From: Eubacteriales bacterium
GTDB taxonomy: Bacteria; Bacillota; Clostridia; Christensenellales; UBA1242
Direction: 5' to 3'
Length of the DNA: 64,000 nucleotides
Assembly (NCBI GenBank): GCA_018384735.1
Contig: JAHAXB010000016.1
Span: 131,510-195,509 of the forward strand
Below, piece after piece: positions 27,725-59,740 of the stretch. A program made the translations under genes and the position numbers. Numbering within the stretch: position 1 is the stretch's first letter; every line of letters begins with the position of its first letter. The notes under the pieces were generated by a model. The model was given only the letters and a program-made list of their open reading frames with translations. It did no database searches and had not been told where the DNA came from.

Positions 27725-29302
27725 TTACGCAAGGGTAACACGATTTTGAGAATCAATTACCATACTACCCCGCCCTTCAACACTGTACGCATCAAAGGTA
27801 ATTTCATTTTTAGCACTGGTCGTGTCTTCCTTGTTCTTACTCACATTTAATTTAGCCACACGGTATTTTTGGGCACAGTTTGCAAAGCGCGCATTGAAAA
27901 CATAGACATCAAAGTTGTTACAAGCATCACCAACACTAACCTCAATATTACCGATTTCGTCATGTCCCGCCAAATAAGCGCCCGAAGTAATCTTCGCCGT
28001 ACCGACTTTATTGAATTGCGCTTTAATATTCGCGAAAGCCGCGCGGTCATGCCCGCCAAGAACTTCCAAGGTCACGTTACCGCCGTTAATACCGGTAACA
28101 TTGATATTACCGTCGTAACCTAAGACATCAACCTTGTGACCACTGGCGCCATCAGCCATATCCACATTAATCGCACCACCATTGATTTCCTTACTAATGA
28201 TATCAACCGAGCCATTTACACCACTCAACGAAATTTCGCCCACGCCGTAGTTGCGCACCTTGGTGGCACCCGCCAACTTACCCACATGTAACCGAGCCGT
28301 TGCGTTGGGCGTATCCGCGGTTCCCGCATTAAATGTTAAATCACCTTTAATACTGCCTGCGTCTAAGTCACCAGAAACGGTATCCATCTTCACTGTTCCG
28401 CTAACTTCTTCCACATCGACCGAAACTCTCGAGGTGTTGACCTCCAAAGTACCAATAGTGCCGCTCATGTGTAAATTACCATTCTTGGCATCTAACTTAA
28501 CCTGATTAGCACTGGTGCCATTGAAACGGTTATTTTCGCCTGTAATAGTAACATTGCCGGTAATTCCCGTCTGGTCCGAACCAAAATCCAAAGTGTTATT
28601 GGTACCTTTGACGAGGACATTGCCGACTTGAGCCTGGCAAGAAAATTTAGTATGGTTGACACTTTCGGCAATCACGACATCATCCACCGAACTGTCCTTA
28701 GCGTATGGGATGGTCACACTGGCCGCGCTTTCCACGATTAAGTCATCAATCAACAATTTATCCGTATTGGTTTCGGTGTCATTAACATAGGAGAAATTAA
28801 CCGGACTATATTTATTTTGCAAAATAAAATCATATTTAAAATTATCGTCACGGTGCGGCAAGTTAATGTAAACCGTGGTTGGCTGATTACTGAAAACCAT
28901 GCCCGATGGTTCCAAAATTTTAATCCGATAAAACAGTTCCTTATCTTCACCGTACAAGGTTTTGGTCCATTGAATTAAGGTACGGTTCAAACTGTTAAAA
29001 GCAATTCCCGTCGCCGATTCATTCACCACAATGGTACCGTTACCTTCGTAACTGGCGCTGGAAACTTTGACTTCAATATTGGTACCATTACTTTCTAAAA
29101 TAAACTTACCATTGGCAAAAGCGTCCGCCAAGTCTTCGTCCAAGTAAACGATTTGTGTATCACGTTCATTGACCGCCTTAGCGCCGAAAATCGAAACATT
29201 AGGAAACATAAATAAAACACCGGTTAAAATTCCCAAAACTACGGCCGACCCCAACAAGATGAACCCCAACACCGCAATAAAATTTAACGCCTGTTTTTTC
29301 AC
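27725..29302 (-). CDS. Membrane-anchored beta-helix repeat protein (DUF4097/LiaG-like putative adhesin), 525 aa
   Basis: GTG start and N-terminal TM (MKKQALNFIAVLGFILLGSAVVLGILTGVLFMF). The C-terminal half is built of short G/N/V/D-rich strand repeats (GTVKMDTVSGDLDAGSIKGDLTFNAG, ISLSGVNGSVDIISKEINGGAINVDMADG) typical of DUF4097-type proteins. The family assignment is from memory only. Confidence 0.55.
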   Translation of the reverse strand: MKKQALNFIAVLGFILLGSAVVLGILTGVLFMFPNVSIFGAKAVNERDTQIVYLDEDLADAFANGKFILESNGTNIEVKVSSASYEGNGTIVVNESATGIAFNSLNRTLIQWTKTLYGEDKELFYRIKILEPSGMVFSNQPTTVYINLPHRDDNFKYDFILQNKYSPVNFSYVNDTETNTDKLLIDDLIVESAASVTIPYAKDSSVDDVVIAESVNHTKFSCQAQVGNVLVKGTNNTLDFGSDQTGITGNVTITGENNRFNGTSANQVKLDAKNGNLHMSGTIGTLEVNTSRVSVDVEEVSGTVKMDTVSGDLDAGSIKGDLTFNAGTADTPNATARLHVGKLAGATKVRNYGVGEISLSGVNGSVDIISKEINGGAINVDMADGASGHKVDVLGYDGNINVTGINGGNVTLEVLGGHDRAAFANIKAQFNKVGTAKITSGAYLAGHDEIGNIEVSVGDACNNFDVYVFNARFANCAQKYRVAKLNVSKNKEDTTSAKNEITFDAYSVEGRGSMVIDSQNRVTLA

Positions 29303-29311
29303 GTTTCAAGT

Positions 29312-29704
29312 TTAACGCCTGTTACGGAAAAAATCCACTAAAATGTTTTGCGCCTCCGCGTTCGGCTGCAACTCCACCGGCGTTTGCCAATTCAAATTCG
29401 TTGTCGACCTAGCACCAATGTAAACCTTACGCAAACGCGCATTCAAAATCGCCCCCATGCACATTTGACATGGTTCCAAAGTCACGTACATTTCGCAATC
29501 ACTCAAACGCCAAGATTTCAACTTACGGCAAGCCCGATTTAACGCCACGATTTCCGCGTGCCACAGGCAATTTTGTTTACGTTCGCGTTGGTTATAACCC
29601 TTGGCAATTATTTTACCATCACGCACAATCACACAACCGATTGGCACTTCCCCACGGCGGGCAGCTTTGCGCGCCTGCTCAACCGCCACTTGCATATAAT
29701 CCAT
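29312..29704 (-). CDS. tadA: tRNA adenosine(34) deaminase
   Basis: CDA-fold motifs GEVPIGCVIV, WHAEIVAL and TLEPCQMCMGAI. Start ATG 29702-29704 overlaps the upstream stop as TAATG. Confidence 0.9.
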   Translation of the reverse strand: MDYMQVAVEQARKAARRGEVPIGCVIVRDGKIIAKGYNQRERKQNCLWHAEIVALNRACRKLKSWRLSDCEMYVTLEPCQMCMGAILNARLRKVYIGARSTTNLNWQTPVELQPNAEAQNILVDFFRNRR

Positions 29705-30780
29705 TACCAAGTCCCCCACACGAAGGATAGGATGGTCAGCGCACTGCCCATGACAACCACCATCGCCAGCAAAGCCCGTTCCAACGGTTTGGAGCGTTGC
29801 GGTTGGTCAAAAGTTTCGATGTAAGCCGCGGTTGCTTTCCAAGTTGGCAAGGTCTGCAAAGCACGTGGCAAGGCCGCTTTCAAACGGTCAAAGTCCTCCA
29901 CGTTAAAATGGTTTTGTGACGACAAATAACGCACCGTGTAACTGTCTAAATTACGTTTGAATTTGTCGCGTGCCATCGCGCGAATGATTTCACCAATCAC
30001 AATGAACACCACTAAGATGGTCAACAACAGTACCACAATGTTACCGAACATAAAGGACACTAAATTAGCACCCGGCAAGTGCAACTCTTCTGCGTAACCA
30101 AAATAGGTCGCCAGCGCGTTGTTCGTAAAATGGATAATTACACTGCCCCATAGAGAACCAGTTGCCAAAACCGTCACGCCCATAAACCACCCCAAAATGG
30201 AAGCATAAAAGAATTGTCCCGCATTCATGTGCATCAAACCGAACAATAAGCTTGACCACAACAAAGCCCGACGCACCCCAAACTGTTTCAGGAAGCCGTG
30301 CATCAGCACACCACGGTGCAAAAACTCTTCACAAATACCGGGCAAAACTGCGGTTAAAATCAACGCAATTAACAAACCGGGATAGCCGTGGAAAACATTG
30401 TCATTGGCGTTGAATTGATAACCCAAAGACTGCAACAACGCAGCAAAGATACTGGCCACAAAAATGTTCAATAAATAAATGCAAATTCCCACCACGAAGC
30501 ATAACACGACATTTTTCGCGGACAACCTACGCCACCCCACGAACTCATTTACGGCTTTGATTGATACGGGTTCGTGAGTAATTTTTTGTGCTCCCAACAT
30601 CATTAACAGCGGCACACCCAACATAATGACAATTTGTGGCAACACGCTGCCCACCACTTCTAACGCTTCGTCCGACAGGTTATCAAAGCAGCCCAGCGAA
30701 AACAATGCCTGCAATAACATCAGCAACGCAATGGCGGTTCCGTAAACAATTAAAGTCACTAAATAACGCTTATTTTTCAT
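29704..30780 (-). CDS. CPBP-family (CAAX/Abi) intramembrane metalloprotease, 358 aa
   Basis: Polytopic membrane protein with EEFLHRG, FGLMH and HFTNN motifs (EExxxR / FxxxH / HxxxN). Confidence 0.8.
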   Translation of the reverse strand: MKNKRYLVTLIVYGTAIALLMLLQALFSLGCFDNLSDEALEVVGSVLPQIVIMLGVPLLMMLGAQKITHEPVSIKAVNEFVGWRRLSAKNVVLCFVVGICIYLLNIFVASIFAALLQSLGYQFNANDNVFHGYPGLLIALILTAVLPGICEEFLHRGVLMHGFLKQFGVRRALLWSSLLFGLMHMNAGQFFYASILGWFMGVTVLATGSLWGSVIIHFTNNALATYFGYAEELHLPGANLVSFMFGNIVVLLLTILVVFIVIGEIIRAMARDKFKRNLDSYTVRYLSSQNHFNVEDFDRLKAALPRALQTLPTWKATAAYIETFDQPQRSKPLERALLAMVVVMGSALTILSFVWGTW

Positions 30781-31345
30781 AATTTGGGATTCCTTTTTTA
30801 ATGAGCCAAAACACTGCTACCGTGGTTGCGACGGCTAACCCCATTGACAGGATAACCGTTCCTGCGCTTAATGTAAACACGCTATCGCCCTCTCCGACAA
30901 AATATGTATATGTAACAATGATGGCGTTATTGATGACATGAATTAACATCGTCCAACCAATTTGGCGGGTCTTAATGAAAATCCACGCTAACCAAACTCC
31001 CATTATAAATTGGTAAACTAATTGCGACCAAGATAAATGGTAAACCGCAAAAATCACCGCGCTAATCACAATTACTGCCCAATCCGGCAGCTTGGTCAAC
31101 TGCAACAACTTACAACTGCACAAACGGAAAATCAATTCTTCCAAGACCGGCACGAGCAACGCCGTAACCAAAAAAGTTAACCAAAATTCATGTGCGAACA
31201 AATCCATGGTTTTACGCGTTTCCAGCCCCCAGCGAATGAACAATTCGGCACACAAATTTTGAAACATCATGTAGCCAAACAAGCACGCCAGCGCGGTAAC
31301 CACGCTAACAATTGCAATGCGTAAATTGTCCTTAACTTTTGGCAT
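30770..31345 (-). CDS. CPBP-family intramembrane metalloprotease, 191 aa
   Basis: Membrane protein with LEELIFRL, FAVYH and HVINN motifs. 11-nt overlap with the next CPBP gene. Confidence 0.75.
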   Translation of the reverse strand: MPKVKDNLRIAIVSVVTALACLFGYMMFQNLCAELFIRWGLETRKTMDLFAHEFWLTFLVTALLVPVLEELIFRLCSCKLLQLTKLPDWAVIVISAVIFAVYHLSWSQLVYQFIMGVWLAWIFIKTRQIGWTMLIHVINNAIIVTYTYFVGEGDSVFTLSAGTVILSMGLAVATTVAVFWLIKKGIPNYEK

Positions 31346-32165: not shown

Positions 32166-35100
32166 TTATTTGGTGGTCATGCGATGGCGCAAACGGATGA
32201 ATAACAGAACGCCGATACCAACCAGTGCTAAGACCACGATCAAGACCACATAACCAAAGGTACTTTGTTTAGGTGCAATCGTCCAACTGTCGCTATAAAC
32301 CACCACACCTTCAGCATTACGGGCAATGACACAGTAACTACCCGCTTCCGAGAAATTAAACAACTCAGCCGTACCAACGTTATCATCTTTCAAACTGGCG
32401 GCAGACAAGATAATTGTTTCCTTTTCTTCACAATCCTTTTCCAAAGTAATGGTCATATCGCCTTGCGTTTTGTACAACCAATATGGGTTATAATAAACCG
32501 TTATGGCGCTAGTCGTGCTGGAACCGCTGGCCGAGCTGGAGAAGAAATAAGTACCAGCACTGTTATCTTTGTGTTGGATGTTAAAGGCCACATCGTGCAA
32601 CACATATTCGTGCGTTATTGGATTTTTGGTTTGTAATGTTACAACATAATTTCCCGGGTTCGTGTTCGCTTCAAATGATAAGTAGCGGTTACCTTTATCG
32701 TCTTTTTTCTCGTAGGTACTGTAATCAGGAACATCGTATCCGTTAAGTGTCAATTTGCTTACCGCAACATCGGAATTATACGAGATATGGAATTCCTCGC
32801 GCACCGCTTTAGACGGAATAATTTCAAAAGTATAACGTCCCTCAAGCTCGCTGGAAAGTTCGCCGGCACCATAAATATAATACTTTACGGTAAGATTATA
32901 GACACCACTTTGCGTCCACGAGAAAACCGATTGTTTACTGTTTGGTTCAATTGAAGTTAACGGATCACCATTGTAAGACACATCAATTTTTCTGACACAG
33001 AAATATTGTTCAAAGAAATCCTCTTCGCTGGTACTTACATCGGCAACCTTCTTTTCAACCAAAGATGCGTAATATTTTTTCAAGAAACTTTCCTTACCGT
33101 AATCGTCTAGCTTCAAATCCACGCGGTCGTTGTAAATCATGTTATTAAATGGTTGTTCCCCGTTAATGGTCACCACTGGTTTGGTCATGACAGCTAAAGT
33201 GTAATGGTCTTGACGGTAATCAATCGTCTTTTCGTTGGTTCCTTCACCAAAATACAAAGTGTTACCAACCATATCGTGAACCACAAATTCATAATAACCA
33301 GAGTTGCCTTGTTCAATAGTAAAGACTTCATTATAATTCAAAGTTTTAACCAATTTACCATTATAGTAACAATCCACCACAATCAAGTTACCTTTCTCGA
33401 TGTAACAAGGAGCCCCGAAATCATCGGTCAAAGTATCGGCATAAAGCATACTAACCGTCAATTTGCGACCTTCGTCTTTGGTTGTAAAGAAATTGTTGTA
33501 AACGATATCATAAGTCGTGGTCGCTGGTTTAACCTTATAGCCTTCCGCGGTATCCGCCGGTTCCTTCGGGTTATCATTCAATTGTAAACTGATTATAGGT
33601 AAGTCGCTGTTTTCGTTGGCGGTATTCAAATCTTCCACCCTGACCCCCGTTGTAGCGAAATAAATGGGATTACTGTAAATTGGAGCACCGTAACGATCTG
33701 TGCCAATATCAAACGCCAAACGCCAAATCAAAGTGTTATTATCCACATCATACGCATAGTAATCAGTTTTCTTGTTACCATTGAGGTAATATCCAGCCAA
33801 TACACGTCCCGTTTGTCCAAGTTGAACATCCAAACCATGCAATTTATTCTCCAAAGTATATTCGCTAAGAGCGTCGTACTGTCCTTCTTGGTTTTTCTCA
33901 ATGGTAAAGATATAATGGGTAATATTATTGTTATCGTAACGATACGGGCTACCCTCAACCGCCTGCAACAATTCGCCATCGTCATAAACCGAAACCAAAG
34001 TATTATCAACCTGAACAATTTCAAATTTATAGGTCTTGGTCGTCCAAACAGTGTTGCGCAAAGTCACCTCATAGGAACCGACCTTAGAGAAACGAGCCGT
34101 CGTCGTTCCACGTTTGAAAGTTACCGATTCCACTTTACCATTCACCGTGCGGCGGTACGAAATCATCACCGGGAATGGATTAAGTAAACCATCACCTGTC
34201 TCTGTATTATCCAATTCCGCAACATTCAAAACAACAACGCTAGTGAAAGAACGGTTAGCAACCTCAATATTTTGACCACTTGCGTTTTGCCAATTTACTT
34301 CTGGTAAACGCGTATCAAAGGCAAATGTCTGGTCAAATAATTTGGCGCCACTGGCACGACCGTATGCCTCAATGCGGTACAATTGCAAAGTATTAGAGCC
34401 GGCGACTGGTTTGAAGCTATAACTTTCACGATCACCGGTAACAAATGGTTGCAAATCCCACCTCTTTTCATTGGTCGATGCATCATAAATCAGAACCGAA
34501 TATACGGTACGCAAGTAACTAAAATCAACACCGCGTTCATCACCGATATACAAGATACCATTTTCGTCTTTTACAAATTTACCATAGGTTTTAAAGTTAA
34601 TTGTGCTTTGCGCTTGTTGATGATATTCGGTAATACTGGTACGACCAAACGGGTCGACCACGGTAATAATCAATTCGTGTTTTTCGTTCGCGGGAATGAC
34701 CGAATCCGCTTTATTACGATCCAACGCGAAAGTAATGTTCGGCACAATTTCCCCGGTTGTCACGTCCTTAACTTCAATTTTATATAAGGAAGACAATTCA
34801 TCTTCAAACATAATCGGTGCATTTTTCAACAGCGATCCATGATTAACAACTTCCAAAGTGATAATCGAACTGGTGACGCTGAGTTGCTTGCATTCTAATT
34901 GAATTTGCTCCGTACTTTCCCGCAAGTTATAGAATTCGAATTTTTCCGGGGTACCAATGCGATCATACAAAGTGTATGAGCATTTTTTACCATTATCCGT
35001 GGCCAATTGAATCCAATGGTTCAATGCATCAATTAAGTTCGCTTCATTCTTGACGTCTTCCCCTTCTTCACCGGCAATTTTCCAATAAGACATTCCGCCC

Positions 35101-38100
35101 AAGACCATGTAATAATCGCCATCATCACTTTGGAAACGGAATGAGTTATTACGCGCGAAGAACTGTTTTACACTGGAAACCGAAGGATGCATGTCGACAC
35201 CGACCGTAATCGAATCTTTTTGTGCCGAATTTTCTTTGTTACCGGTTTCGCCGATAAATTCAATTTTGTTTTTGTAATTTTTACCTTGCATTTGGATGAC
35301 ATAGTTGGTTTCGTGACCGACATAGTCAATTTCGGTAATCCAATAGTAACGCATTTCGTTATCACGCAAGCCGACCAAGGTGGCAAACGGAATGCGTTCG
35401 CTATCCGTACCATCAACATACAAGGTAAATTCCTGACCGACCGTGGAGCCCTCCGCCGAGTAATCAACTTCACGATAAATGATTTTTTTGGTATCCAAAT
35501 AACGGTTATGGTTAATATCTGCCGCGAACACGAAATCATTACTTAAACCATAAATGTAATCGTCCGGAATTTTTGATTCTTTCAAGGTGCAAGCCAGGTT
35601 ATCCCCTGCTTTAATTTGGCTGCGGTTATAATTCGGTTTTTCGGTATCGAACAAAATGGTGTAATTGGTTGATTTGCCGTCATAAGCAATCACGCGCACC
35701 GACAAACTGGAACCATTATCGATACGAACATTGTTTAAGAAATTACGTAACAAATCATATTTATAAACCCCATCTTCGGATTCCGGTTGCGTCAAGAAAA
35801 TTTGTTCCGTCACTCCATCCGAGGTCCAGATCCAACTAGCGGTAGTTTGTGCCACATCAACATCAATGTACATACTATTCGGATCGCTCTTGAAATTAAA
35901 TTGCAATTTGGTTAAATTGGTGGGATCAATCACGCATACATAATTTCCCTTGCTTGCCAATTCCATATCGATATTTTCTTTGTCTTCGGACAAAATTTCG
36001 GTTTTTTCATTACCCGTCTGATCCTGATAAGTACGGGTATGGGTCACAGCAATTTTGGCCGGAGTACCGCAATCGGTATCAATATTCATGGTTAAAATAT
36101 CCCAGTTCGCACTGGTTGTCGCGCCCGGCTTAATGCCCAATTCGGTTATGTTACCGTCAATCAACATACAAGCGATATTACGCGCATCATCGGTCACTAA
36201 TAATTGGTAGATACTATCACCGGTGAAAGTTCCACCTAAGCCCCAAACATTCTTGCCCGAACCCAAATCGGTTTTAATTCCCGCATTGGTATAACTGAAA
36301 CGCGGTGTCAAGGCCGGGAAATTAAAATTGGTCTTTGGCGTTTCATTATTCGCCAGGTAAGCCAAGTAGTTAAAATTGCCCGACAAACCTTCATCGTTGT
36401 CAATCTTTAATACATATTCCGTGCTATCCCTGGTATACTTTTTGCCCGTAGCCTGGTCGGTATAACTATATGCATATTTACTGTTATAACCTTTGACCCA
36501 CGCAATACGATTACTGCTTAAAACTTTTTCGTTGTCATCAATCACTTTAGCGTCCGCGTCTTTAGCCTTCGGAGAACGGTCGGTTCGGCTATCCGCGAAG
36601 TGTACAGTCAACGGAGTTTCGTAACAAATTTTGTCTGGATTTTGTTGTTGGTATGCTTGATAAATCAAACCATTGGTGCCCTCGTCTTGCCTAAAGTAGG
36701 CGGTATCATTTTTTTGGTAAGTCAACATACCTTGGCCATCCACGATAAAGTAATAATCGCGACCTTTTTTATCCGTGGAATTAGCACCCAACTGTGTATA
36801 AACACGGGTTAAGATGTACATGCCCGCTGGCGTTTGTCCTTGATTAAATAAAGCCAAACGAATGGTTTTACCGTCATCACTGGAGGTATAACTGTAAATG
36901 GTACCTTTGGTCTCCCCGCCGGCGCCAAGATCTCCAACCTGGTACGCGAAAATCGCTTTATCACCATTTTTGGGATTGTTAAGTGGCTTTTCCGCAAAAG
37001 GATAATTACTGGATGTGGGATCAAAAGTTAACGGATAATATTGCAAATAAACTTTATTCACGCGATAAACTGCCGATGTCGATTGATTAAAAGAGAATGT
37101 TACATAAGGACGATTGGTCACACCACCGGTCATCGTCACAATTGATGTATCCGTACTTGGTTGCTTTTCAATCATACCACGACCTTTGTTATCACCTGAA
37201 GCAACAATATCCAAATGCATCGATTCCGCATAAACCGAACCTAAGCAAACATCACGCGTTAAGATAATGTAATATTCGCCCACGTTACCCAAAATATCGG
37301 TAGCGCGGAAGTAATATGTTTCTTCTTCATTCAAGGTTAAATATCCCTTAGTCAACGGATCGTTAACATGATCAAAGGCATCATCAGCCGCCGTAATTTT
37401 GTGGTAAGCTTCGCCACCGACACTAATTTCCACGTTCGCCAACGGAATATCCAACAAATATTGACTGCTATAATTTCCTTTATTGATTAAGTACCCTGCC
37501 GTCTTCAATCCGTCGAAAGCGGTGCCAAATTCCGCATATTCACGCTTTAAGCCGTTTTCAGCAGCAAACATTACTTTGTCAAAAACCGCGCCATCCTTAC
37601 GGTTAATCATTTTATTTTTACCAAAGCCAACCCGCACTCCGTCGTTACCAAAGGTCACCATGTTGGACGCAATTTTAGGTTTTTCGGTGTCTTGCGTAAA
37701 TGTGGGCGCGCTGCCATCAATCACCAAAATATACGGCGTTTCGTTACCTACCGCATCAACGATCACGAAGCGATATAAACCCGCTTGTGTCAGTTTCAAA
37801 GGATTGACACCATCTTCGGAAATCGTCCACCTCTTACCGTCCGCGGTCGGCACTACTTTATAACCGTCATGGCTGTAAATTGGTTCATCCGTGAATGCAT
37901 AAGCGCTATATAAATCTTTTAACACACCGTTTGATAAGGCATTGTTAAACCATTCGAAGTTAAGACTAGTTTTGGTTGAAGTATGATCACCAGCAGCCAC
38001 ATAGTTTGGGTCTGTACCAGGTTTTTCCAAATCCATACTGTAAAATTCGTACATGACTTTATCAAATCCGACACCACTGCTCTTTTTGTTCCATACCAAA

Positions 38101-40649
38101 CTAACTTCGCCCTTACCGACAATGGCGATGTTGTTAGCCAAGTTTTGCGGCAAAGTCAATGCATTAGCCTTTGTGTCAGCGTGGATACCCTGGGCTTTCT
38201 GACGATCGACAGCAAGGTTGAAAATCGTAGTGGATTTACTGTGCGCACCATATTTAACGCTTAAACGATATTGCCCTTCGTTTAACGTAAAGACAAACGA
38301 ACCGTCATTGGTCGGCTGCAAAGGTAACGGGTCGTAATCATAGTAACCGATTTCAGCGTAAAACAATTCAATAGTTGGTAAGACTTCAAACTTGCCCAAA
38401 GTTTTTTTACCGTTATATTTAATGGTAACATCCGTACCCTCCAAGTATAATTTTTGGTTCAATTCCAACTCAGCAGCCTGATAAGTCTTTGGTTCACTCT
38501 CGCCATTTAATTTAACTTCAAAAGTAATTTGTGCGCCATTAACAATTTCAAAATAGAACGTTTGTTGACTCATTTGATTATTAACAAGGAAATAAACGAC
38601 AACTACATATTGTCCAGCTTCTTCAAACGGAGCACCAACTTCCATTGTACTATACTGCCATTGGCGACTATTTCCCGTGCCATAAGCTGGCAAGAAAGCC
38701 ACGGTCGACAAAACTTTCTCTTCGCTATTTTCACCATAAGAGCCAGTAGCGTGCGGAACATTACCCGACAGTTTTACCGGTGGGAAATTCGTACGTACCG
38801 GTTCGCATTGTTCACTTTCCAAAAATTGCACCAACCACTCTGCATACGCCAAGGCATTATCCACCGTCATTTTTTCATAATCGGTTGCAATGCCACTGTT
38901 TTGTGCGGTTTTCTCGGGATGGTCTTTACGCAACCAGGCTGAAATATCACTACTATGGAAAATGGTTTTTCCCGCTTCGACCGTAACATCATTATCGTTA
39001 TTGTCGTAAAACGGTTTTGGTCCAACATATTGACTATCATCGTGACGGCCACCATAATATGCTTGGAAACCATAGATGTTCAAAGTACTTTCAGACTTTT
39101 TATAGCGCTTCAAAATCACGCAACCATTAGCATCAACACCACGATTTTTATATTGGTCCAGATGCTCAAAAATCCAACTGTTTCTGTAACGTAAAGTTGA
39201 AATTATTTGGTATTCGCCGATATTATAAAAACGCAACTCACGGGTTTTGTAAGTATAATTCTGGCTGTTTTTTTGATTATCAAAATATTCTGGTGCCGGT
39301 TCCGCAACTTCAATGTCAAATAACCAGTGCGGAAAACTCAGCACTGGATAGTCGCTTTCGTATGAATAGTTATAAACCTCGCTATAGCCTTTTACGCGGT
39401 TAGCAGTATCAAAACGAGGGAAACCGCTCAAGCCGTCACTGGAGGTGTAATTCAATTTATTGACGATCATGAACGCGATAGAGATATTCACCGGCACTGG
39501 AGCACGCCCCGCTTCCGACACACCCAAGCTTAATTCAATTTCGTACAAACCTTCGCCTTGGAAGATACCACGCAAAGCAGTACCGTTATAGGCCACGCCG
39601 CCGATTTCATAAGAAATTTGCTGGTTATCCGCTTCCGGATCAAATGTTAAACTTTCTAACAAAACACCTTTGAAATCCACATCCAAACGGTCACGAAGTT
39701 TTAACACTGTATCAGTGGCATCCTTAACCATGACCTTGTAACCATTACGATGAATCTTATAGGCCAATTGGTAGGTTACATTACCGTTGCCATCATCAAC
39801 GGCACGGTATAACTTTGTCTCTTCCGCATCAACATTATCCGCAATTACATATTCGTCATTCTTGATGGTATAGAATTTTTGCGCTTGACCATCGGTAATC
39901 ACTAAGGCATAACCGCCGGCGACTTTGTTGTTCGGTACATAGTTCAATTCCATCAAAACGGTTTTATGATCAGCCGTACTGTCGGTTGTATAAACAACTG
40001 CCCCCTTACCGCCGGAAGTTCTCTTTTCAAAACCACCGTAAACTTGGTCATTAGAAAATTCATCCGAAACTAAATGACGATTAACATCGTCAACAAATGG
40101 CTCGCCATCTAATTTCACATTGACGCTTAATAACTCATCCAAATCAGTCAATTCAAACAAAACCACATCATCGTAATGGCTGGAGTCCAACATGACGACT
40201 GGAATTTCCAAGTTATTGCCTAATCCATTAGCAATTAAACGCATATCGCTATTAGAGAACACTGGATAAGGCGCAATCACTTTTTCGTTTTTATCCAAAC
40301 GACGATTATTTTGCATTGTAGAAAATTCTTCGCGGTCGACACGGTTTTTCGGGTTCGCACGCAAGAAGCTAGTCAATGTTCCCGTATTGTAACTTTCCTG
40401 TACCAGGGTAAACTTAGTTTTGGAACCGATACTAACGGTACCGGTATCCACATCGTCAAACGCAATGCGTTGATACAAATCATCAAAAGTTGGAATATAA
40501 CTGGGGTCAAGACTGACCGGATCGGAAATCGCGTTAGGATTGGCGTTACGATGATTGAAATTCAAAAAGAGGCTAGCACCAAACATGGCTAACATAATTG
40601 TTACGCTTAAGATCGTTAGCGCAATAATTCGACCACGGCCAAACCTCAT
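32166..40649 (-). CDS. Giant surface protein with N-terminal signal/anchor and C-terminal TM anchor (about 2,827 aa)
   Basis: Uninterrupted ORF. Best start is ATG 40647-40649 (MRFGRGRIIALTILSVTIMLAMFGASLFLNF) with GGGGG 7 nt upstream. The C-terminus FGYVVLIVVLALVGIGVLLFIRLRHRMTTK is a TM plus basic tail. No LPXTG motif and no recognisable catalytic motif. Confidence 0.9.
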   Translation of the reverse strand: MRFGRGRIIALTILSVTIMLAMFGASLFLNFNHRNANPNAISDPVSLDPSYIPTFDDLYQRIAFDDVDTGTVSIGSKTKFTLVQESYNTGTLTSFLRANPKNRVDREEFSTMQNNRRLDKNEKVIAPYPVFSNSDMRLIANGLGNNLEIPVVMLDSSHYDDVVLFELTDLDELLSVNVKLDGEPFVDDVNRHLVSDEFSNDQVYGGFEKRTSGGKGAVVYTTDSTADHKTVLMELNYVPNNKVAGGYALVITDGQAQKFYTIKNDEYVIADNVDAEETKLYRAVDDGNGNVTYQLAYKIHRNGYKVMVKDATDTVLKLRDRLDVDFKGVLLESLTFDPEADNQQISYEIGGVAYNGTALRGIFQGEGLYEIELSLGVSEAGRAPVPVNISIAFMIVNKLNYTSSDGLSGFPRFDTANRVKGYSEVYNYSYESDYPVLSFPHWLFDIEVAEPAPEYFDNQKNSQNYTYKTRELRFYNIGEYQIISTLRYRNSWIFEHLDQYKNRGVDANGCVILKRYKKSESTLNIYGFQAYYGGRHDDSQYVGPKPFYDNNDNDVTVEAGKTIFHSSDISAWLRKDHPEKTAQNSGIATDYEKMTVDNALAYAEWLVQFLESEQCEPVRTNFPPVKLSGNVPHATGSYGENSEEKVLSTVAFLPAYGTGNSRQWQYSTMEVGAPFEEAGQYVVVVYFLVNNQMSQQTFYFEIVNGAQITFEVKLNGESEPKTYQAAELELNQKLYLEGTDVTIKYNGKKTLGKFEVLPTIELFYAEIGYYDYDPLPLQPTNDGSFVFTLNEGQYRLSVKYGAHSKSTTIFNLAVDRQKAQGIHADTKANALTLPQNLANNIAIVGKGEVSLVWNKKSSGVGFDKVMYEFYSMDLEKPGTDPNYVAAGDHTSTKTSLNFEWFNNALSNGVLKDLYSAYAFTDEPIYSHDGYKVVPTADGKRWTISEDGVNPLKLTQAGLYRFVIVDAVGNETPYILVIDGSAPTFTQDTEKPKIASNMVTFGNDGVRVGFGKNKMINRKDGAVFDKVMFAAENGLKREYAEFGTAFDGLKTAGYLINKGNYSSQYLLDIPLANVEISVGGEAYHKITAADDAFDHVNDPLTKGYLTLNEEETYYFRATDILGNVGEYYIILTRDVCLGSVYAESMHLDIVASGDNKGRGMIEKQPSTDTSIVTMTGGVTNRPYVTFSFNQSTSAVYRVNKVYLQYYPLTFDPTSSNYPFAEKPLNNPKNGDKAIFAYQVGDLGAGGETKGTIYSYTSSDDGKTIRLALFNQGQTPAGMYILTRVYTQLGANSTDKKGRDYYFIVDGQGMLTYQKNDTAYFRQDEGTNGLIYQAYQQQNPDKICYETPLTVHFADSRTDRSPKAKDADAKVIDDNEKVLSSNRIAWVKGYNSKYAYSYTDQATGKKYTRDSTEYVLKIDNDEGLSGNFNYLAYLANNETPKTNFNFPALTPRFSYTNAGIKTDLGSGKNVWGLGGTFTGDSIYQLLVTDDARNIACMLIDGNITELGIKPGATTSANWDILTMNIDTDCGTPAKIAVTHTRTYQDQTGNEKTEILSEDKENIDMELASKGNYVCVIDPTNLTKLQFNFKSDPNSMYIDVDVAQTTASWIWTSDGVTEQIFLTQPESEDGVYKYDLLRNFLNNVRIDNGSSLSVRVIAYDGKSTNYTILFDTEKPNYNRSQIKAGDNLACTLKESKIPDDYIYGLSNDFVFAADINHNRYLDTKKIIYREVDYSAEGSTVGQEFTLYVDGTDSERIPFATLVGLRDNEMRYYWITEIDYVGHETNYVIQMQGKNYKNKIEFIGETGNKENSAQKDSITVGVDMHPSVSSVKQFFARNNSFRFQSDDGDYYMVLGGMSYWKIAGEEGEDVKNEANLIDALNHWIQLATDNGKKCSYTLYDRIGTPEKFEFYNLRESTEQIQLECKQLSVTSSIITLEVVNHGSLLKNAPIMFEDELSSLYKIEVKDVTTGEIVPNITFALDRNKADSVIPANEKHELIITVVDPFGRTSITEYHQQAQSTINFKTYGKFVKDENGILYIGDERGVDFSYLRTVYSVLIYDASTNEKRWDLQPFVTGDRESYSFKPVAGSNTLQLYRIEAYGRASGAKLFDQTFAFDTRLPEVNWQNASGQNIEVANRSFTSVVVLNVAELDNTETGDGLLNPFPVMISYRRTVNGKVESVTFKRGTTTARFSKVGSYEVTLRNTVWTTKTYKFEIVQVDNTLVSVYDDGELLQAVEGSPYRYDNNNITHYIFTIEKNQEGQYDALSEYTLENKLHGLDVQLGQTGRVLAGYYLNGNKKTDYYAYDVDNNTLIWRLAFDIGTDRYGAPIYSNPIYFATTGVRVEDLNTANENSDLPIISLQLNDNPKEPADTAEGYKVKPATTTYDIVYNNFFTTKDEGRKLTVSMLYADTLTDDFGAPCYIEKGNLIVVDCYYNGKLVKTLNYNEVFTIEQGNSGYYEFVVHDMVGNTLYFGEGTNEKTIDYRQDHYTLAVMTKPVVTINGEQPFNNMIYNDRVDLKLDDYGKESFLKKYYASLVEKKVADVSTSEEDFFEQYFCVRKIDVSYNGDPLTSIEPNSKQSVFSWTQSGVYNLTVKYYIYGAGELSSELEGRYTFEIIPSKAVREEFHISYNSDVAVSKLTLNGYDVPDYSTYEKKDDKGNRYLSFEANTNPGNYVVTLQTKNPITHEYVLHDVAFNIQHKDNSAGTYFFSSSASGSSTTSAITVYYNPYWLYKTQGDMTITLEKDCEEKETIILSAASLKDDNVGTAELFNFSEAGSYCVIARNAEGVVVYSDSWTIAPKQSTFGYVVLIVVLALVGIGVLLFIRLRHRMTTK

Positions 40650-40680
40650 TCGTATTCCCCCAACATAGATAGTATGTTTA

Positions 40681-40709
40681 ATTATAGGTTTTATATTTGA
40701 GATAGTCAA
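40681..40709 (-). promoter_or_regulatory. Consensus-like sigma-70 promoter of the 8.5-kb gene (TTGACT-17-TATAAT)
   Basis: The complement of 40704-40709 is TTGACT and the complement of 40681-40686 is TATAAT, with a 17-nt spacer. A 31-nt leader carries the G5 Shine-Dalgarno. The TTG start used by the ORF track is this -35 box. Confidence 0.65.
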
Positions 40710-40724
40710 TCAAAACGAATCGGC

Positions 40725-42722
40725 TTACCATTCAAACAAATCGCGGCGTTGTGCTGTATTAACACGACGAATTACGATGTCATTACGACGATGAATATCA
40801 TAATAAATTGCGGCTTCGTCGAAGTATTTGCCCGGAATATAAATGTCCGGTGTCGGGCGTAAGCGAATTACACCTTTGTTAATACATTCGTAGAACAACG
40901 TGACTTTACTGCGTAACGGGTGGAATGTGAAGCAATAAACAAAGATGTTACCCGGCACAATATCCAACAATTCGTTTGGTGGCAACAAAGGACGACTGGC
41001 GGTATTGATTGCGGTTGACTTGCTACCGCCTTCGGAGTCTTCCTTGGCTGCCTTACCCGTGTTACGGCTAACCGTAGTACTTTCGGTGGTAACTTCCATA
41101 TCCCCCATTAAATCCGAGAACATCTTACGTGTATCAGTATCGTTAACACCGACGAAGACTTGGTGGTTACAGTTGTTACGCACGGTTACCGCGGTTTCTG
41201 CACCGTAAGTTGTTTCCAGTTGCTTGTAATCCTGCAAAACTAAAGTGAAGAAAATACGACGCGAACGCGAAACCGTAATCACAGTTGCAAAGTCGTTAAT
41301 TTTGGGCATGTTACCAAACTCATCCAAAACGAAATAAGTTGGCCACGGTAACTTACCGCCCCTTTCGTTCGCACTGGCAACCAAAGATTTATATAATTGT
41401 GAAATACACAAAGTTGCCAACGGGTGACGCACTTTAATTTGGTCCGGAATAATCAAGAAGAACGCGGTCGGTTTCTTTGCAAAGTCTTCAAACTTAATAT
41501 CCGTACCACTAGTAATGTAGCAAATACCCTTATCGTTAAACATGGACAATTTTTGGGTTGCAATACCAAAGAAGTTACGCATCGTGTTTTCCGCGTTGGC
41601 GGTAACCGTTTGCGCCAATGAAGCTGCGACAGACAGTTTGTCACGACCTTCAAAGTAGTTCTTAATGGTTTTGAACATAGCTTGCGGGTCGTTATCACGA
41701 ATCGACAAGATTTTGAAAATGTTATAGAAGTTGAATTTTTCGCGAGTCATTCCCAGGTTCGGGTTCAAACTGTCTTCCAACATCGCCATCGCTGTACCTT
41801 GAATTAAGTCGCGGGCGCCCTGCTCCCAGCTCGGGTCCTTTTCGTTTTCAATCGGACAAATCGCCGAACAAATATCTTTAATGTCGGCTTCGGAATCCGA
41901 AATCAGTTGTTGACGTAAAGTACGCATTTCGTTTTCCGCCATTTCCTTGCTCGGGAAAGCAATTCCGTTAAACGAATACCAAACCGGCGGATAAGTGCTG
42001 GCAATTACACGGTAGCCCAATTTCGCCGGATTAGCATTTTCGTGGCGTTCAATTTCGCGTTCCAAATGCTGTGCGCGTTGGAACATATCCCACGGCTTTT
42101 CGAACGGGTTCCAACGGGAACTGCGAATCGGGTCATTCAAGTTGAAGACTTGCACATCGTAACCTTGATGGCGTAAACTTTCCGCCATCGTATGGTAAAT
42201 TTCACCTTTTGGGTCGGTAATGACTAAGTTCGGTTTTTGGTTTGAAAAACCCAAAGTATAAATAAACGGGAAAACATAACCTTGCGTTTTGGCGGCACCC
42301 GTGGTACCCAAAATAATCGAGTGATAATCTTTCGGAATCATATTGATGTGAATATCACTGCCCATCAATTCAAAGCGCGCCAACGGTCCGGTTTTATTCA
42401 AAGAACTTAATTGTGAAGCGCAGGTGTAAATGTAAGTCTTATCACGTTCGGCCGCTGTCATCCAACGGTTAGAATAATATTGAGAAACACCACTACTCTT
42501 TTTCTTTTTACCGTCGTTATCTAAATATTTGAACAAGACAAACGCCAAAATACATAACGGTATCAACAACATTCCCATTTTAAAGATTTGGTCGTTAAAT
42601 GCCTGTGGACTGGTTAGTTCGCGATTAGCTAATAAATTCGCGACAACATACAATGCCGCCGCCAACACCAACAAGCCTCCCAAAATAATGAAAAGCCATT
42701 TCCCCAATTTCTTTGTATCCAT
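40725..42722 (-). CDS. VirD4/TraG-family type IV coupling protein-like ATPase (665 aa)
   Basis: Two N-terminal TM segments. P-loop ILGTTGAAKTQGYVFP, VITDPKGE, Walker B YFVLDEFGNMP and TLVLQDYKQL. The layout is typical of T4SS-DNA_transf (TraG/TraD/VirD4) proteins. Confidence 0.8.
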   Translation of the reverse strand: MDTKKLGKWLFIILGGLLVLAAALYVVANLLANRELTSPQAFNDQIFKMGMLLIPLCILAFVLFKYLDNDGKKKKSSGVSQYYSNRWMTAAERDKTYIYTCASQLSSLNKTGPLARFELMGSDIHINMIPKDYHSIILGTTGAAKTQGYVFPFIYTLGFSNQKPNLVITDPKGEIYHTMAESLRHQGYDVQVFNLNDPIRSSRWNPFEKPWDMFQRAQHLEREIERHENANPAKLGYRVIASTYPPVWYSFNGIAFPSKEMAENEMRTLRQQLISDSEADIKDICSAICPIENEKDPSWEQGARDLIQGTAMAMLEDSLNPNLGMTREKFNFYNIFKILSIRDNDPQAMFKTIKNYFEGRDKLSVAASLAQTVTANAENTMRNFFGIATQKLSMFNDKGICYITSGTDIKFEDFAKKPTAFFLIIPDQIKVRHPLATLCISQLYKSLVASANERGGKLPWPTYFVLDEFGNMPKINDFATVITVSRSRRIFFTLVLQDYKQLETTYGAETAVTVRNNCNHQVFVGVNDTDTRKMFSDLMGDMEVTTESTTVSRNTGKAAKEDSEGGSKSTAINTASRPLLPPNELLDIVPGNIFVYCFTFHPLRSKVTLFYECINKGVIRLRPTPDIYIPGKYFDEAAIYYDIHRRNDIVIRRVNTAQRRDLFEW

Positions 42723-42729
42723 TACTTAT

Positions 42730-42759
42730 ATAATAGTGGAAATTACCTTAATTAGGCAA
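42730..42759 (-). promoter_or_regulatory. Candidate promoter of the coupling-protein gene (TTGCCT-18-TATTAT, -10 is 7 nt from the ATG)
   Basis: The complement of 42754-42759 is TTGCCT and the complement of 42730-42735 is TATTAT. It overlaps the 3' end of the upstream gene. No Shine-Dalgarno. Confidence 0.45.
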
Positions 42760-43551
42760 CTTGATTTTTGTTACGCCGTCCAGCAATGCCAACAACAAAG
42801 TCACTTTCAAAGAACGACGTTCGTCCGCACCCTTTTCTGCCCCGTAAAAATGCCATGCACTTGTATCCGTTAAAGTATCACTGAAAAACACGAACTCACC
42901 AAAACGCATTTGCAAACGCTTGGCTGCGGCTGCAAAGCCCGCACATTCCATTTCTACGACCTTGGCGCCCTGCTCACGGCGTTTAGCTGTCCGCGCTTTG
43001 GTTTCACGAAACAAGCCGTCCGTTGTCCAAGTTATGCCACGCACAACTTTCATTCCGCCGCTTTGTAAAAACTCCATCAACCACTTGGTTAATTCAGTAT
43101 CAGTATCCACATAAACCGAGGGCGCTAGATAATGATAACTGGCGCCTTCATCACGAATAGCCTTCTCAATCACAACGCACGCGTCCGCAGGAATTGCATC
43201 ATCCAACTGCCCCGCCGTCCCGTAAGCAATCACATTTTCAATTCCTAAGTACTTCAACTCTTCCATCACGGCGACTGCGGCTGGGCTGCCTACCGTCATG
43301 AAAACAATCAAGCATTGATCCTGATATTGGTACACGGGCATTTTTCCCGAACGACCATAAACATAAAACAACAACCGACAATCTTGTAAAATCGGCGCCA
43401 AAACAACTTGGTCGATTTGGTCACACAAAAAAGTACAAACCGCAGTCTTAATCGCGGGCGACAATTTAACTTGTTGCGCACCATGCATGGCTGCAGGAGT
43501 AATAATTGGCTCGTCAGCAAAGAACTCTAAAATAGGTGGTAATTCCGTCAT
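42748..43551 (-). CDS. Nucleoside phosphorylase-family (PNP_UDP_1-like) protein
   Basis: 267 aa. VVEMECAGFAAAAK resembles the (V/M)EMExA motif of PNP/MTAN-type phosphorylases. TAATG overlap with the upstream gene. Confidence 0.55.
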   Translation of the reverse strand: MTELPPILEFFADEPIITPAAMHGAQQVKLSPAIKTAVCTFLCDQIDQVVLAPILQDCRLLFYVYGRSGKMPVYQYQDQCLIVFMTVGSPAAVAVMEELKYLGIENVIAYGTAGQLDDAIPADACVVIEKAIRDEGASYHYLAPSVYVDTDTELTKWLMEFLQSGGMKVVRGITWTTDGLFRETKARTAKRREQGAKVVEMECAGFAAAAKRLQMRFGEFVFFSDTLTDTSAWHFYGAEKGADERRSLKVTLLLALLDGVTKIKLPN

Positions 43552-45050
43552 TATAAAATTTCCACATTCTTTTTGTAAATCTTGGTAAATTCTTTACTTA
43601 ATTTTTGTAATTGGAAAATTTCGGTTTTCGCAGCGTCAACATCCACCTTAGCTTTCTTCATGTCGGTTTCGGTAATCAATTTGATAATTACACTGTCACC
43701 CAAAACATCACAAGAAATATCTTTTACAATTTTTTGGTTGCGTAAGTTAATTGTGTAAGCCATCGCTTCAATCATAGCCAACTTACGCACCGCCATCAAA
43801 TCTTCTTCATCCATCAAATCCTTGTACTTAACCCATTCCGACAACATAAAGTCATCCCAGTTACGGCAACTGGCAACAAAGGCCGCCATCACAATTTCCT
43901 TATGGCTCAATCCGCAAATATTGGAATTCAAAATTGCATAGTAGGTAATCTTATCAAAGTTTTGCTTGTTAATGTTGGTTCCTAAGTTAAACAACAAGGT
44001 GGCGACTTTCAAAACGCGGGTAAACGAGCGTGGCAACTTGTGCAAAACTTTTAATTGCATATATAAGGTGCTAGCCAATAAGTATTGATACTTCGCGCTT
44101 TCCAAATCCAAATTGTTCGCCCACAAAATGGTTTCCACACTGTTCAAGCAAACATCGTTGACTGGACGTTCATCGTCACCCATGGTCAAGCGTTGCGCAA
44201 TACCAATGTTACGACCATTGCGGTTAATCACGATTTTTGACAATTTGGTGTAATCCATCACCGACAAAGCGATCGACATACCGTTCATCAAGTAACCAAT
44301 TCCATTTGCGGTAATACCTTTCAACTTGGCACCGCGTTCCACATCCAAACCTTGCAAGAAAGTCAAGATTTCTTGGAAGTGGGTTTTATCACTGTTATAG
44401 TTGTGGTCCATATCGAACGGATACTTGGTTTTCTTACGTGACAAGCGCGCAAAGCCAGTAAAGATTTCGCTGGAACCAATGACCGGAATTTCGGGGTCAA
44501 TTTGTTGGAACGGTTCCCCCGCCGCTTTCAATAATTCATTGAACTCTTCAATGTTGGTAAAGTTCGCGGCACCCATCGGGATGGTCGCACTGTTCAGAAC
44601 CACACGACGGCAATAATACACCAAACGCGTGCTGGTGGTTGAAATTGCCACAATCAATCCTTTCGCAATGTCAATGGTATTAACTACCGCAGTATATAAG
44701 AGGTTGATTTCCTCTTCTTCGGTCAACAACTTAAATTCCAAATCCAAATCCGAATTGATTTCTTCCAAGAACGAAATGTAGTTCTTCGCTACGGTCAAAT
44801 TCGCCGAAGCCACACAATGATATTTAGTTACACCGTTCGCCACCGCGATTTGTTTATACATTTGTAAAATGTTAATGCATTCTTTAATCTTCACCGTTTT
44901 AATCAGTTCGCTGTTTTCTTGCAAATGCTTTTCAATACTAACATTTTCGGTGTATTCTTTTTCAACTTCAAAATACTTACCTTCCTCAATACGCACAATC
45001 GACAACTTGATTTGATTGGTACCTAATTCCATGATTGCAACTTTCATCAT
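43551..45050 (-). CDS. Ppx/GppA-family phosphatase
   Basis: 499 aa. N-terminal ASKHA-fold signature IMELGTNQIKLSIV (compare DLGSNSxRL) and a C-terminal helical domain. Confidence 0.7.
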   Translation of the reverse strand: MMKVAIMELGTNQIKLSIVRIEEGKYFEVEKEYTENVSIEKHLQENSELIKTVKIKECINILQMYKQIAVANGVTKYHCVASANLTVAKNYISFLEEINSDLDLEFKLLTEEEEINLLYTAVVNTIDIAKGLIVAISTTSTRLVYYCRRVVLNSATIPMGAANFTNIEEFNELLKAAGEPFQQIDPEIPVIGSSEIFTGFARLSRKKTKYPFDMDHNYNSDKTHFQEILTFLQGLDVERGAKLKGITANGIGYLMNGMSIALSVMDYTKLSKIVINRNGRNIGIAQRLTMGDDERPVNDVCLNSVETILWANNLDLESAKYQYLLASTLYMQLKVLHKLPRSFTRVLKVATLLFNLGTNINKQNFDKITYYAILNSNICGLSHKEIVMAAFVASCRNWDDFMLSEWVKYKDLMDEEDLMAVRKLAMIEAMAYTINLRNQKIVKDISCDVLGDSVIIKLITETDMKKAKVDVDAAKTEIFQLQKLSKEFTKIYKKNVEIL

Positions 45051-45178
45051 GGTTTGATATTAACATATATTTTTAATTTTGTATAGACCTTAGTTAAAAG
45101 TTTTTTTCTTGCTAAAAGTGGCTGTTTTAGTGTAAACTACACTCTATATTGTATATGGAAAAGATGGAGAAAAGAATC

Positions 45179-56627: not shown

Positions 56628-56634
56628 AATGGAA

Positions 56635-56748
56635 CTTGCGTCTACCTAGATTGTCGGGCCGTCTCCAGCCAGATAGTTTCGGCGTTTATGGTCTTAACTG
56701 CTGTGTTCGGAATGGGAACAGGTGTTACCCCATAGCAATAGACGCAAG
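56635..56748 (-). rRNA. rrf: 5S ribosomal RNA
   Basis: The reverse complement reads CTTGCGTCTATTGCTATGGGGTAACACCTGTTCCCATTCCGAACACAGCAGTTAAG...CTAGGTAGACGCAAG, with the conserved CCGAAC loop and a terminal helix I. Confidence 0.9.
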
Positions 56749-56816
56749 TAATGGACGTGAACTTGACAAGCATTCACTGCAAATTGTAAGGCAAAACGTT
56801 CTGTAAACGCTTGCTC

Positions 56817-59740
<2,924 letters not shown>

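Follow-up and report, generated by a model that had tools for sequence, protein, structure and literature searches.

Nearly all known functions of type IV secretion systems (T4SSs) in Gram-positive bacteria are conjugative; according to a review of December 2025, the exceptions are the S. suis 89K system and the Patescibacteria, and VirB2-like pilins are not known from other Gram-positive systems (PMC12857230). The Patescibacteria T4SS, of the MPF_FATA type (MPF, mating-pair formation), is chromosomal and relaxase-less, its coupling protein (T4CP) is mostly encoded far from virB4, and this T4CP was possibly exapted (PMC12102498). Mycoplasma integrative and conjugative elements (ICEs of mycoplasmas, MICEs; e.g. 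ICEA) encode a TraG (CDS5), a VirB4 (CDS17), transmembrane (TM) channel proteins, a surface lipoprotein (CDS14), and the DDE transposase CDS22 (PMC6030558). Here we compare with these systems a locus of an uncultured rumen bacterium of the Eubacteriales (Clostridia), in which a gene for a T4CP of the VirD4/TraG type lies directly upstream of the gene for a giant, predicted surface protein. It was found in 64,000 nt of contig JAHAXB010000016.1 (positions 131,510 to 195,509, forward strand), a stretch called the window throughout, to which all coordinates refer. We regard it as an even bet that both proteins form one functional, vertically inherited module, representing the reduced core of a chromosomal T4SS-like system of the monoderm/mycoplasma-ICE (MPF_FATA-like) kind, in which the T4CP partners the tail of the giant protein. 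In the literature searched, no description of this pair or of a related Clostridia system was found.

The coupling protein and its giant neighbor

A preliminary description of this DNA, made from the sequence letters, had pointed out the two genes; its coordinates, sizes, and the 15-nt spacing were all found to be correct by open reading frame (ORF) calling and reading of the intergenic sequence. The features of the pair, all on the minus strand, are as follows:

40725..42722, minus: T4CP gene, 665 aa, VirD4/TraG type, CD1115-family-like (ORF, Pfam, and NCBIfam)
42516..42710, minus: two N-terminal TM segments of the T4CP, aa 5-34 and 44-69 (hydropathy scan)
42285..42308, minus: deviant Walker A GTTGAAKT, aa 139-146, with the Gly before Lys changed to Ala (motif reading, tier comparison)
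41316..41333, minus: intact Walker B FVLDEF, aa 464-469 (alignment of homologues)
40650..40724, minus: T4CP-giant intergenic region with promoter and ribosome-binding site (RBS), no terminator
32166..40649, minus: giant protein gene, 2,827 aa plus stop (ORF, re-read start, RBS)
40557..40637, minus: N-terminal hydrophobic segment of the giant protein, aa ~5-31, signal peptide or signal anchor (hydropathy, alignment, AlphaFold2 (AF2))
32259..40556, minus: predicted extracytoplasmic body, a diverged Ig/FN3/cadherin-like beta-sandwich array (AF2 and Foldseek)
32196..32258, minus: C-terminal TM helix, aa 2798-2818 (hydropathy; AF2 helix at model residues 871-898)
32169..32195, minus: 9-residue basic, predicted cytoplasmic tail RLRHRMTTK-COOH (orthologue alignment)

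The T4CP matches the Pfam families T4SS-DNA_transf (PF02534, 2.6e-49, 168.8 bits, cut-off 20.1), TraG-D_C (PF12696, 1.2e-30, 106.4 bits), and TrwB_AAD_bind (PF10412, 9.2e-24, 84.5 bits) as well as the NCBIfam equivalog NF045973 'VirD4-like, CD1115 family' (285.7 bits, cut-off 250), and TrwB was its sole match in a sequence search of the PDB. The profile match extends over the nucleotide-binding, all-alpha, and C-terminal domains, preceded by the two-TM anchor typical of the class. Walker B reads YFVLDEF, with D467 and E468 invariant in 28 aligned homologues and F469 listed alongside them as family-invariant. The protein had been called a P-loop NTPase in the preliminary description, but the P-loop itself is non-canonical: GTTGAAKT departs from GxxGxGK[ST] by an Ala in place of the invariant Gly of GK[ST]. 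In P-loop NTPases, a side chain at the Gly preceding the Lys is expected to weaken nucleotide binding. Outside Walker A, comparison within the clade showed the T4CP to be extremely conserved.

T4CPs are usually recognized also by a relaxase and/or MPF genes of the VirB4 type encoded nearby, and none of these accompanies the window T4CP. When all substantial ORFs of the window were scanned against Pfam and NCBIfam, no further T4SS gene and no relaxase, integrase, transposase, or other mobility gene was identified, and profile hidden Markov models (HMMs) built from related loci revealed no VirB4, VirB6-like protein, lipoprotein, or pilin in the six-frame translation of the window. Likewise, no T4SS genes were present in the flanks of ~10 kb to the left and ~3.4 kb to the right, which were recovered from a second assembly of the same organism. 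The lack of relaxase, VirB4, channel, integrase, and transposase genes nearby, noted in the preliminary description, is hence confirmed, and its term "orphan" is appropriate locally, for the window and flanks.

Conservation, co-divergence, and selection

Scanning one genome per GTDB species yielded 17 loci, all from rumen or gut metagenome-assembled genomes (MAGs) of the "Clostridia bacterium" kind, with three contigs labelled Prevotella; a metagenome scan with the family alignment contributed 80 more loci and exact-protein look-ups the others, followed by ORF calling and clustering. The three contigs from "Prevotella sp." MAGs (L002, L007, L015) are syntenic with the rest, match Clostridia MAGs in gene content, and are probably mis-binned.

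Conservation of the pair in related genomes, which had been proposed as a check, is extensive. At T4CP identities of at least 75% to the window copy, the giant gene was located directly downstream on the same strand in 15/15 informative loci; at 59-67% this was so in 10/11, the eleventh having the giant gene nearby on the other strand, and at 40-44% in 9/11 loci. Adjacency persisted even where all flanking genes are different (e.g. L018, L021, L106, L108), while identity to the window copies fell in step, from 95 to 38% for the T4CP and from 57 to 16% for the giant protein. The giant family itself is narrow, comprising 54 representative clusters among 1.84 billion representative proteins (phmmer with the last 900 residues), whose full-length members of 2,350-3,008 aa aligned colinearly. 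Every member with visible genomic context resides in a T4CP-bearing locus, 49 of 51 directly downstream of the T4CP.

These observations bear on the idea that the two genes are unrelated neighbors, the giant protein being a general envelope or S-layer-like protein and the adjacency a historical accident. Consistent with it, the giant gene has a strong promoter of its own, and S-layer proteins are among its Foldseek matches. Nevertheless, an adjacency that outlasts complete turnover of the flanks and T4CP divergence down to 38% identity, in a family confined to T4CP-bearing loci, makes such an accident very improbable.

Across 17 species-level genomes the chromosomal position of the pair is fixed, which argues for vertical inheritance. 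The upstream Ppx-PNP and downstream MBL-CPBP flanks recur in most loci of the close clade, PNP being absent in L013 and L017. Estimates of dN/dS (omega; Nei-Gojobori, species pairs) were 0.014-0.043 for the T4CP, 0.024-0.051 for Ppx, 0.05-0.16 for PNP, and 0.07-0.18 for the giant protein, values which are approximate, since several pairs approached saturation of dS; the ranking was the same for L008-L014, the pair with the least divergence (dS 0.18-0.53). Few genes of the neighborhood are thus as constrained as that of the T4CP, on which purifying selection acts as strongly as on housekeeping genes and whose ORF is intact in all relatives.

One of two options raised in the preliminary description was a decayed element, i.e. 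the remnant of an integrated conjugative element whose genes are drifting. The lack of other mobility or T4SS genes nearby and the deviant Walker A would fit such a remnant. Yet, the option is refuted by the low omega of the T4CP (0.014-0.043), the intact ORFs, the adjacency conserved in 15/15, 10/11, and 9/11 loci, and the fixed position with synteny in 17 species-level genomes, to which the conserved promoter can be added, so that we attach next to no probability to it. The other option, a reduced contact or transfer module, is supported in outline by distant relatives, where the pair has further T4SS genes beside it.

A full module in distant relatives and a reduction series

In many loci of the 38-44% T4CP identity tier, the T4CP-giant pair is arranged head-to-head with a compact operon. 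This encodes one or two ~115-aa two-TM proteins matching Pfam T4SS_pilin (PF18895), a lipoprotein of 560-830 aa, a polytopic membrane protein of ~770 aa, and a VirB4-type ATPase of ~880 aa (Pfam P-loop_TraG, DUF87, and AAA_10). In line with the lead to mycoplasma ICEs given in the preliminary description, three of these neighbors match mycoplasma-ICE families: the ATPase reached 573.5 bits over its full length against NCBIfam VirB4_plasma/Mbov_0397, below the cut-off of 590, the polytopic protein 109 bits against MMCAP2_0566/Mbov_0396 (cut-off 90), and the pilin 35.6 bits against the Mbov_0395 pilin-like family, below the cut-off of 40. Distant modules are flanked by housekeeping genes (aminoacyl-tRNA synthetases, MetK, PolA, ribosomal protein L1, GAPDH, RecX, RecO, MinDE, MreB) on contigs of up to 0.7-0.9 Mb. 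Neither a relaxase nor a DDE transposase or other MICE backbone gene was seen among the best 25 of 128 Pfam families in the flanks (98 ORFs), a scope that leaves room for one transposase in some distant locus. Mycoplasma ICEs, too, have no recognized relaxase and use a DDE transposase (PMC6030558), so that absence of a relaxase alone is no proof of immobility. In all loci examined, VirB4, wherever found, was within 10 kb of the T4CP.

The suggested T4CP phylogeny, a neighbor-joining tree, united the giant-associated T4CPs in one clade remote from the conjugative CD1115 T4CP of B. thuringiensis pBMB68; within it, a derived group made up of the window clade and a termite-gut clade is nested among full-module, giant-associated lineages. 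The closest plasmid T4CPs are ~29% identical to that of the window. A sister T4CP clade (36-39% identity) has no giant gene; instead, L099:6830-21678, and similarly L080, L084, L089, L091, and L096, carry a colinear cluster of pilin, F18, T4CP, F17, polytopic F3, a long VirB4 (1,250-1,515 aa), a STAS-domain protein, and F24.

Gene content of the loci can be arranged as a reduction series:

Full module: pilin, lipoprotein, VirB6-like, VirB4, T4CP, giant, Rho-like
Termite clade: pilin in 3/11 loci, T4CP, giant, Rho-like; VirB4 in 0/5 loci
L013, L015, L017: T4CP, giant, short Rho-like
Window subclade: T4CP and giant only

Within 8-10 kb of the T4CP, 12 relatives (20-kb loci) had no gene for a pilin, VirB6-like protein, VirB4, or lipoprotein, and HMM searches against all loci found no additional diverged pilin, F3, VirB4, or F19 members in the close or termite clades. 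The degenerate Rho-like protein of the series (L074:19645-21057, minus strand) keeps the Rho N-terminal and RNA-binding domains and has no Walker A. Its gene usually follows the giant gene in related loci and is absent from the window's subclade; equivalents in L021, L070, L079, L081, L018, L028, L013, L015, and L017 shrink from ~470 to ~290 aa across the lineage.

Changes in the catalytic motifs of the T4CP follow the same series across identity tiers:

40-45% (includes full-module loci): Walker A canonical GxGK[TS] in 45/45; Walker B DEF in 45/45
56-71% (sister): Walker A non-canonical (GxNKT or GxGKG) in 10/60; Walker B D-to-E in 5
75-94% (window): Walker A GAAKT, GANKT, or GSSKT in 12/13; Walker B canonical

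Within the termite-gut clade, Walker A reads GSGKG in L031, L039, and L041, having lost the Thr after Lys, and Walker B reads LEEF in L033 and L037, having Glu for Asp. These are independent changes of catalytic residues in lineages without an adjacent VirB4.

The series can be read in two ways. We lean, by a small margin, towards loss of the VirB4/VirB6 channel in the window lineage. The other reading is a split but complete T4SS, with VirB4, a VirB6-like protein, lipoprotein, and pilin encoded elsewhere in the genome and the T4CP acting as canonical substrate receptor; DNA or protein would be moved in a manner resembling conjugation or mycoplasma chromosomal transfer, and the giant protein would be the mating or contact adhesin. 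This is a serious possibility, short of even odds and nearly as likely as the reduced core. The full module is the common state in relatives, some sister-clade loci without an adjacent VirB4 keep the pilin beside the T4CP, T4CPs away from virB4 are common in other lineages (PMC12102498), and purifying selection is strong, with the catalytic Lys/Thr and Asp-Glu kept. Conversely, VirB4 where found is always close to the T4CP, and nothing of the kind was seen across the 64-kb window, the two flanks, or the 20-kb loci of the 12 relatives. Moreover, the accessory Rho-like gene was lost too, and the clade-wide loss of the P-loop Gly together with the recurrent GKT-to-GKG and D-to-E changes (the latter two in the sister clade only) points to an altered constraint on ATP turnover.

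The giant protein and its basic tail

Mechanical ORF calling had extended the giant gene to 32166-40709 (2,847 aa from a TTG); the actual start is the ATG at 40649. The basic start MR[FY]xRGR (MR[FY]xRGRIIALT...) is conserved across the close clade and leads into the hydrophobic segment, modelled by AF2 as a helix at aa 4-34. A classical signal peptide with an AXA site is seen in many orthologues; in the window clade, the conserved segment, modelled as a long helix, may stay uncleaved as an anchor. AF2 models of aa 1-1000 (pLDDT 77.9) and aa 1928-2827 (pLDDT 76.6) are both strings of beta-sandwich domains. Their Foldseek matches are generic (titin/MyBP-C, contactin, protocadherin, MG domains of alpha-2-macroglobulin, Sap S-layer protein), with weak ones to the Ig-like domains of PrgB and to invasin. 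An Ig-like array as in conjugation adhesins is thus predicted by AF2 and Foldseek, with surface exposure suggested by the topology. Conserved positions, often GxY, are spread along the full length; self-BLAST detected no internal repeats, and neither Pfam nor NCBIfam provided a domain match. Hits to papillomavirus L1 and cytidine deaminase in searches of Pfam, NCBIfam, and the PDB had E > 0.001 and were dismissed as noise. Giant proteins of the clustered loci have the same layout of a hydrophobic segment at the N-terminus and a TM helix at the C-terminus, with 2,400-2,850 aa at full length.

In this otherwise fast-evolving protein, no short motif is as well conserved as its very end. The tail motif [LM]-R-x-[KRG]-[MLV]-[KRT]-[VIT]-[KRS]-COOH is kept in 30/30 full-length orthologues, which are otherwise 16-57% identical; F2817, R2821, and M2824 are each at least 90% conserved, and the tail is gapless and of fixed length. 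The C-terminus (...APKQSTFGYVV...FIRLRHRMTTK) contains no LPXTG sortase signal.

Another reading is that the T4CP is dedicated to powering the export or membrane insertion of the giant protein, comparable to SecA2 for serine-rich adhesins or ABC transporters of type I secretion systems for giant RTX adhesins. The fixed one-to-one pairing of ATPase and giant protein and the established recognition of basic C-terminal signals by T4CPs would agree with this. We nonetheless consider it improbable: a Sec-type signal is present at the N-terminus of the giant protein, many orthologues of which have AXA cleavage sites, its tail is predicted to stay cytoplasmic, and Walker A is degenerate in exactly the clade of the window. 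Furthermore, T4CPs are not known to move polypeptides across a membrane on their own.

Between the two genes, the T4CP stop codon (40725-40727) is followed exactly 15 nt downstream by a -35 box, TTGACT (40704-40709), which with a 17-nt spacer and the -10 box TATAAT (40681-40686) gives an 11/12 consensus match, placing it among the top two promoter-like sites of 15 kb. A GGGGG RBS (40657-40661) precedes the ATG, and inspection of the intergenic sequence showed no terminator-like site. Promoter, 5' untranslated region, and RBS are near-identical base for base in 15 species-level relatives, despite largely saturated synonymous sites (dS of ~1 or above in most of the species pairs compared).

Neighboring genes

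The housekeeping flanks listed in the preliminary description (Ppx/GppA, phosphorylase, MBL hydrolase, CPBP proteases, tadA) were borne out by Pfam and NCBIfam, which identified PheS, RecD2, Ppx/GppA, a PNP-type phosphorylase, an MBL hydrolase, two CPBP proteases, and tadA, in addition to a MurJ/Wzx-like flippase, YetF, UvrA, a sigma factor, a TrmH-like rRNA methylase, mini-RNase III, and rubrerythrin; several ORFs of the window had no family match at all. Beyond it, the left ~10 kb encode PheT, peptidases, an amidase, and SpoIID, and the 3.4 kb on the right side SufC/SufBD. GC content is uniform (0.40-0.47). Hallmarks of an ICE are missing at the window locus: neither an integrase or DDE transposase with element boundaries nor MPF genes are present, and the locus shows no patchy presence or variable insertion site. 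Directly upstream of the T4CP lie

42748..45050, minus: Ppx/GppA (43551-45050) and PNP-type phosphorylase (42748-43551), tightly packed

and this arrangement is probably one operon, in the window's clade only.

Downstream of the giant gene, the close clade conserves two tandem CPBP (Rce1-like) intramembrane proteases (29704-31345, minus strand), and a CPBP gene is found directly upstream of the T4CP in two distant loci, L093 and L098. Such proteases could relate to processing of the C-terminal anchor, or the proximity could be coincidental.

A divergent operon (45149-48757, plus strand) encodes a protein of 894 aa with TM segments at both termini as well as two small membrane proteins of 173 and 149 aa, which are mutually paralogous (hhalign probability 96%). 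It is fast-evolving (omega 0.07-0.2) and conserved in the close clade only. Diverged T4SS accessory genes were considered as its identity and rejected, as hhalign gave at most 15% against the pilin, lipoprotein, F3, F17, and F18 profiles.

The window contains a second giant ORF of 6,890 aa (6993-27665, minus strand), with an N-terminal TM segment only and no Pfam match, preceded by a 525-aa N-terminally anchored protein (27725-29302, minus strand), also without Pfam match. Paralogy of the 6,890-aa and 2,827-aa proteins was dismissed, as BLAST between them gave nothing; the former has no internal repeats. Finally, 23S and 5S rRNA genes occupy 56633-59738 (minus strand) with no adjacent 16S gene, and protein genes resume from 60028; a listed ORF at 58955-59575 is spurious, being inside the 23S gene.

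How the pair might work

We propose that Sec exports the giant protein by way of the N-terminal signal sequence or anchor, and that its C-terminal helix would hold it in the membrane, with a rod of ~25-28 beta-sandwich domains, ~100 nm if extended, serving as contact or adhesion fibre of the system. The short basic tail of fixed length would be the docking site for the membrane-anchored T4CP. An interaction between the two had been suggested in the preliminary description, and the strong conservation of the tail lends it indirect support. T4CPs classically read positively charged C-terminal signals, and the T4CP is the only cytoplasm-facing protein always co-occurring with the giant protein; both points lead us to the proposed docking, by which the T4CP would link events at the cell surface to the cytoplasm. 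If the channel was lost, the T4CP might be no motor for DNA coupling but an adaptor or anchor of the giant protein, dependent on nucleotides and of low turnover. More tentatively, and with chances clearly below even, the T4CP may have been exapted to such channel-less work, the degenerate-P-loop T4CP and the tail of a ~100-nm Ig-like fibre constituting a self-contained contact or signalling device, a vertically inherited core trait of one lineage of rumen Clostridia.

Several points weigh against the reduced core. VirB4 and VirB6 may lie elsewhere in the genome, the window and flanks having been covered and the contig being 198 kb long, and Patescibacteria commonly encode the T4CP at a distance from virB4 (PMC12102498). 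In the sister clade from termite guts, a pilin still precedes the T4CP in 3/11 loci, which argues for persistence of the channel there. The putative contact between tail and T4CP is deduced from sequence, and a short basic tail following a stop-transfer helix is in part what the positive-inside rule predicts. Likewise, retention of the Walker A Lys and Thr and the Walker B Asp-Glu suggests that ATPase activity may be normal, and the giant protein would be an adhesin by virtue of its modelled fold and topology only.

Comparison with known systems

Like the window T4CP, the CD1115-family VirD4 proteins of Firmicutes plasmids and ICEs (e.g. of pBMB68) have two N-terminal TM segments and T4SS-DNA_transf, all-alpha, and TraG-D_C regions. 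The pBMB68 T4CP, however, is situated between a MobP3 relaxase and TrbL/PrgI/VirB4/NlpC-P60, whereas that of the window has neither relaxase nor MPF genes beside it, is only ~29% identical to its best plasmid homologues, is chromosomal at a fixed position, carries GAAKT, and is followed by the giant gene.

A Gram-positive T4SS relying on a large surface adhesin with Ig-like domains is also known from pCF10, with PcfC and PrgB. PrgB, in contrast, is LPXTG-anchored, has a polymer-adhesin domain, is plasmid-borne, and is not encoded beside the T4CP, while the giant protein displays neither LPXTG nor a known adhesin domain.

With MICEs, the distant relatives share the Mbov_0395, MMCAP2_0566/Mbov_0396, and Mbov_0397 families, a lipoprotein gene, the absence of a canonical relaxase, and the coupling of a surface protein to a minimal T4SS. 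Unlike MICEs, the Clostridia system occupies a fixed, housekeeping-flanked site, is vertically inherited, and shows no DDE transposase in the flanks surveyed; its hosts are walled (SpoIID, amidase, and MurJ-like genes are present), and the surface partner is a TM-anchored Ig-like array of 2,400-2,850 aa instead of a lipoprotein; of the system, the window keeps only the T4CP and giant genes. The shared families hint at a possible evolutionary link of the Clostridia systems to the minimal machinery by which Mollicutes conjugate.

Among published systems, the T4SS of Patescibacteria comes closest: it is of the MPF_FATA type, chromosomal, relaxase-less, and likewise vertically inherited, and has VirB2-like pilins in a monoderm (PMC12102498; PMC12857230). 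The window locus, too, is chromosomal, vertically inherited, and without a relaxase, but it has no cluster of VirB4 with VirB6, VirB3/8, and a VirB2-like pilin. It further belongs to another phylum (Bacillota, Clostridia), no giant partner is described in Patescibacteria, and in the window lineage it is the T4CP, not VirB4, that is the retained and most constrained gene. Next to S. suis 89K and the Patescibacteria, the Clostridia lineage represents a third case, namely a vertically inherited, housekeeping-flanked, relaxase-less T4SS-like system of walled bacteria, with components of the mycoplasma-ICE type, a VirB2-like pilin, and an obligatory giant protein. The window would be its most reduced form, with only T4CP and giant protein remaining and the ATPase motif changed, and the T4CP together with the 9-residue tail offers a concrete pairing by which a coupling protein could be wired to a surface structure. 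The natural series from full module to pilin, T4CP, and giant protein, and from there to T4CP and giant protein, poses the question of what role a T4CP has without a channel.

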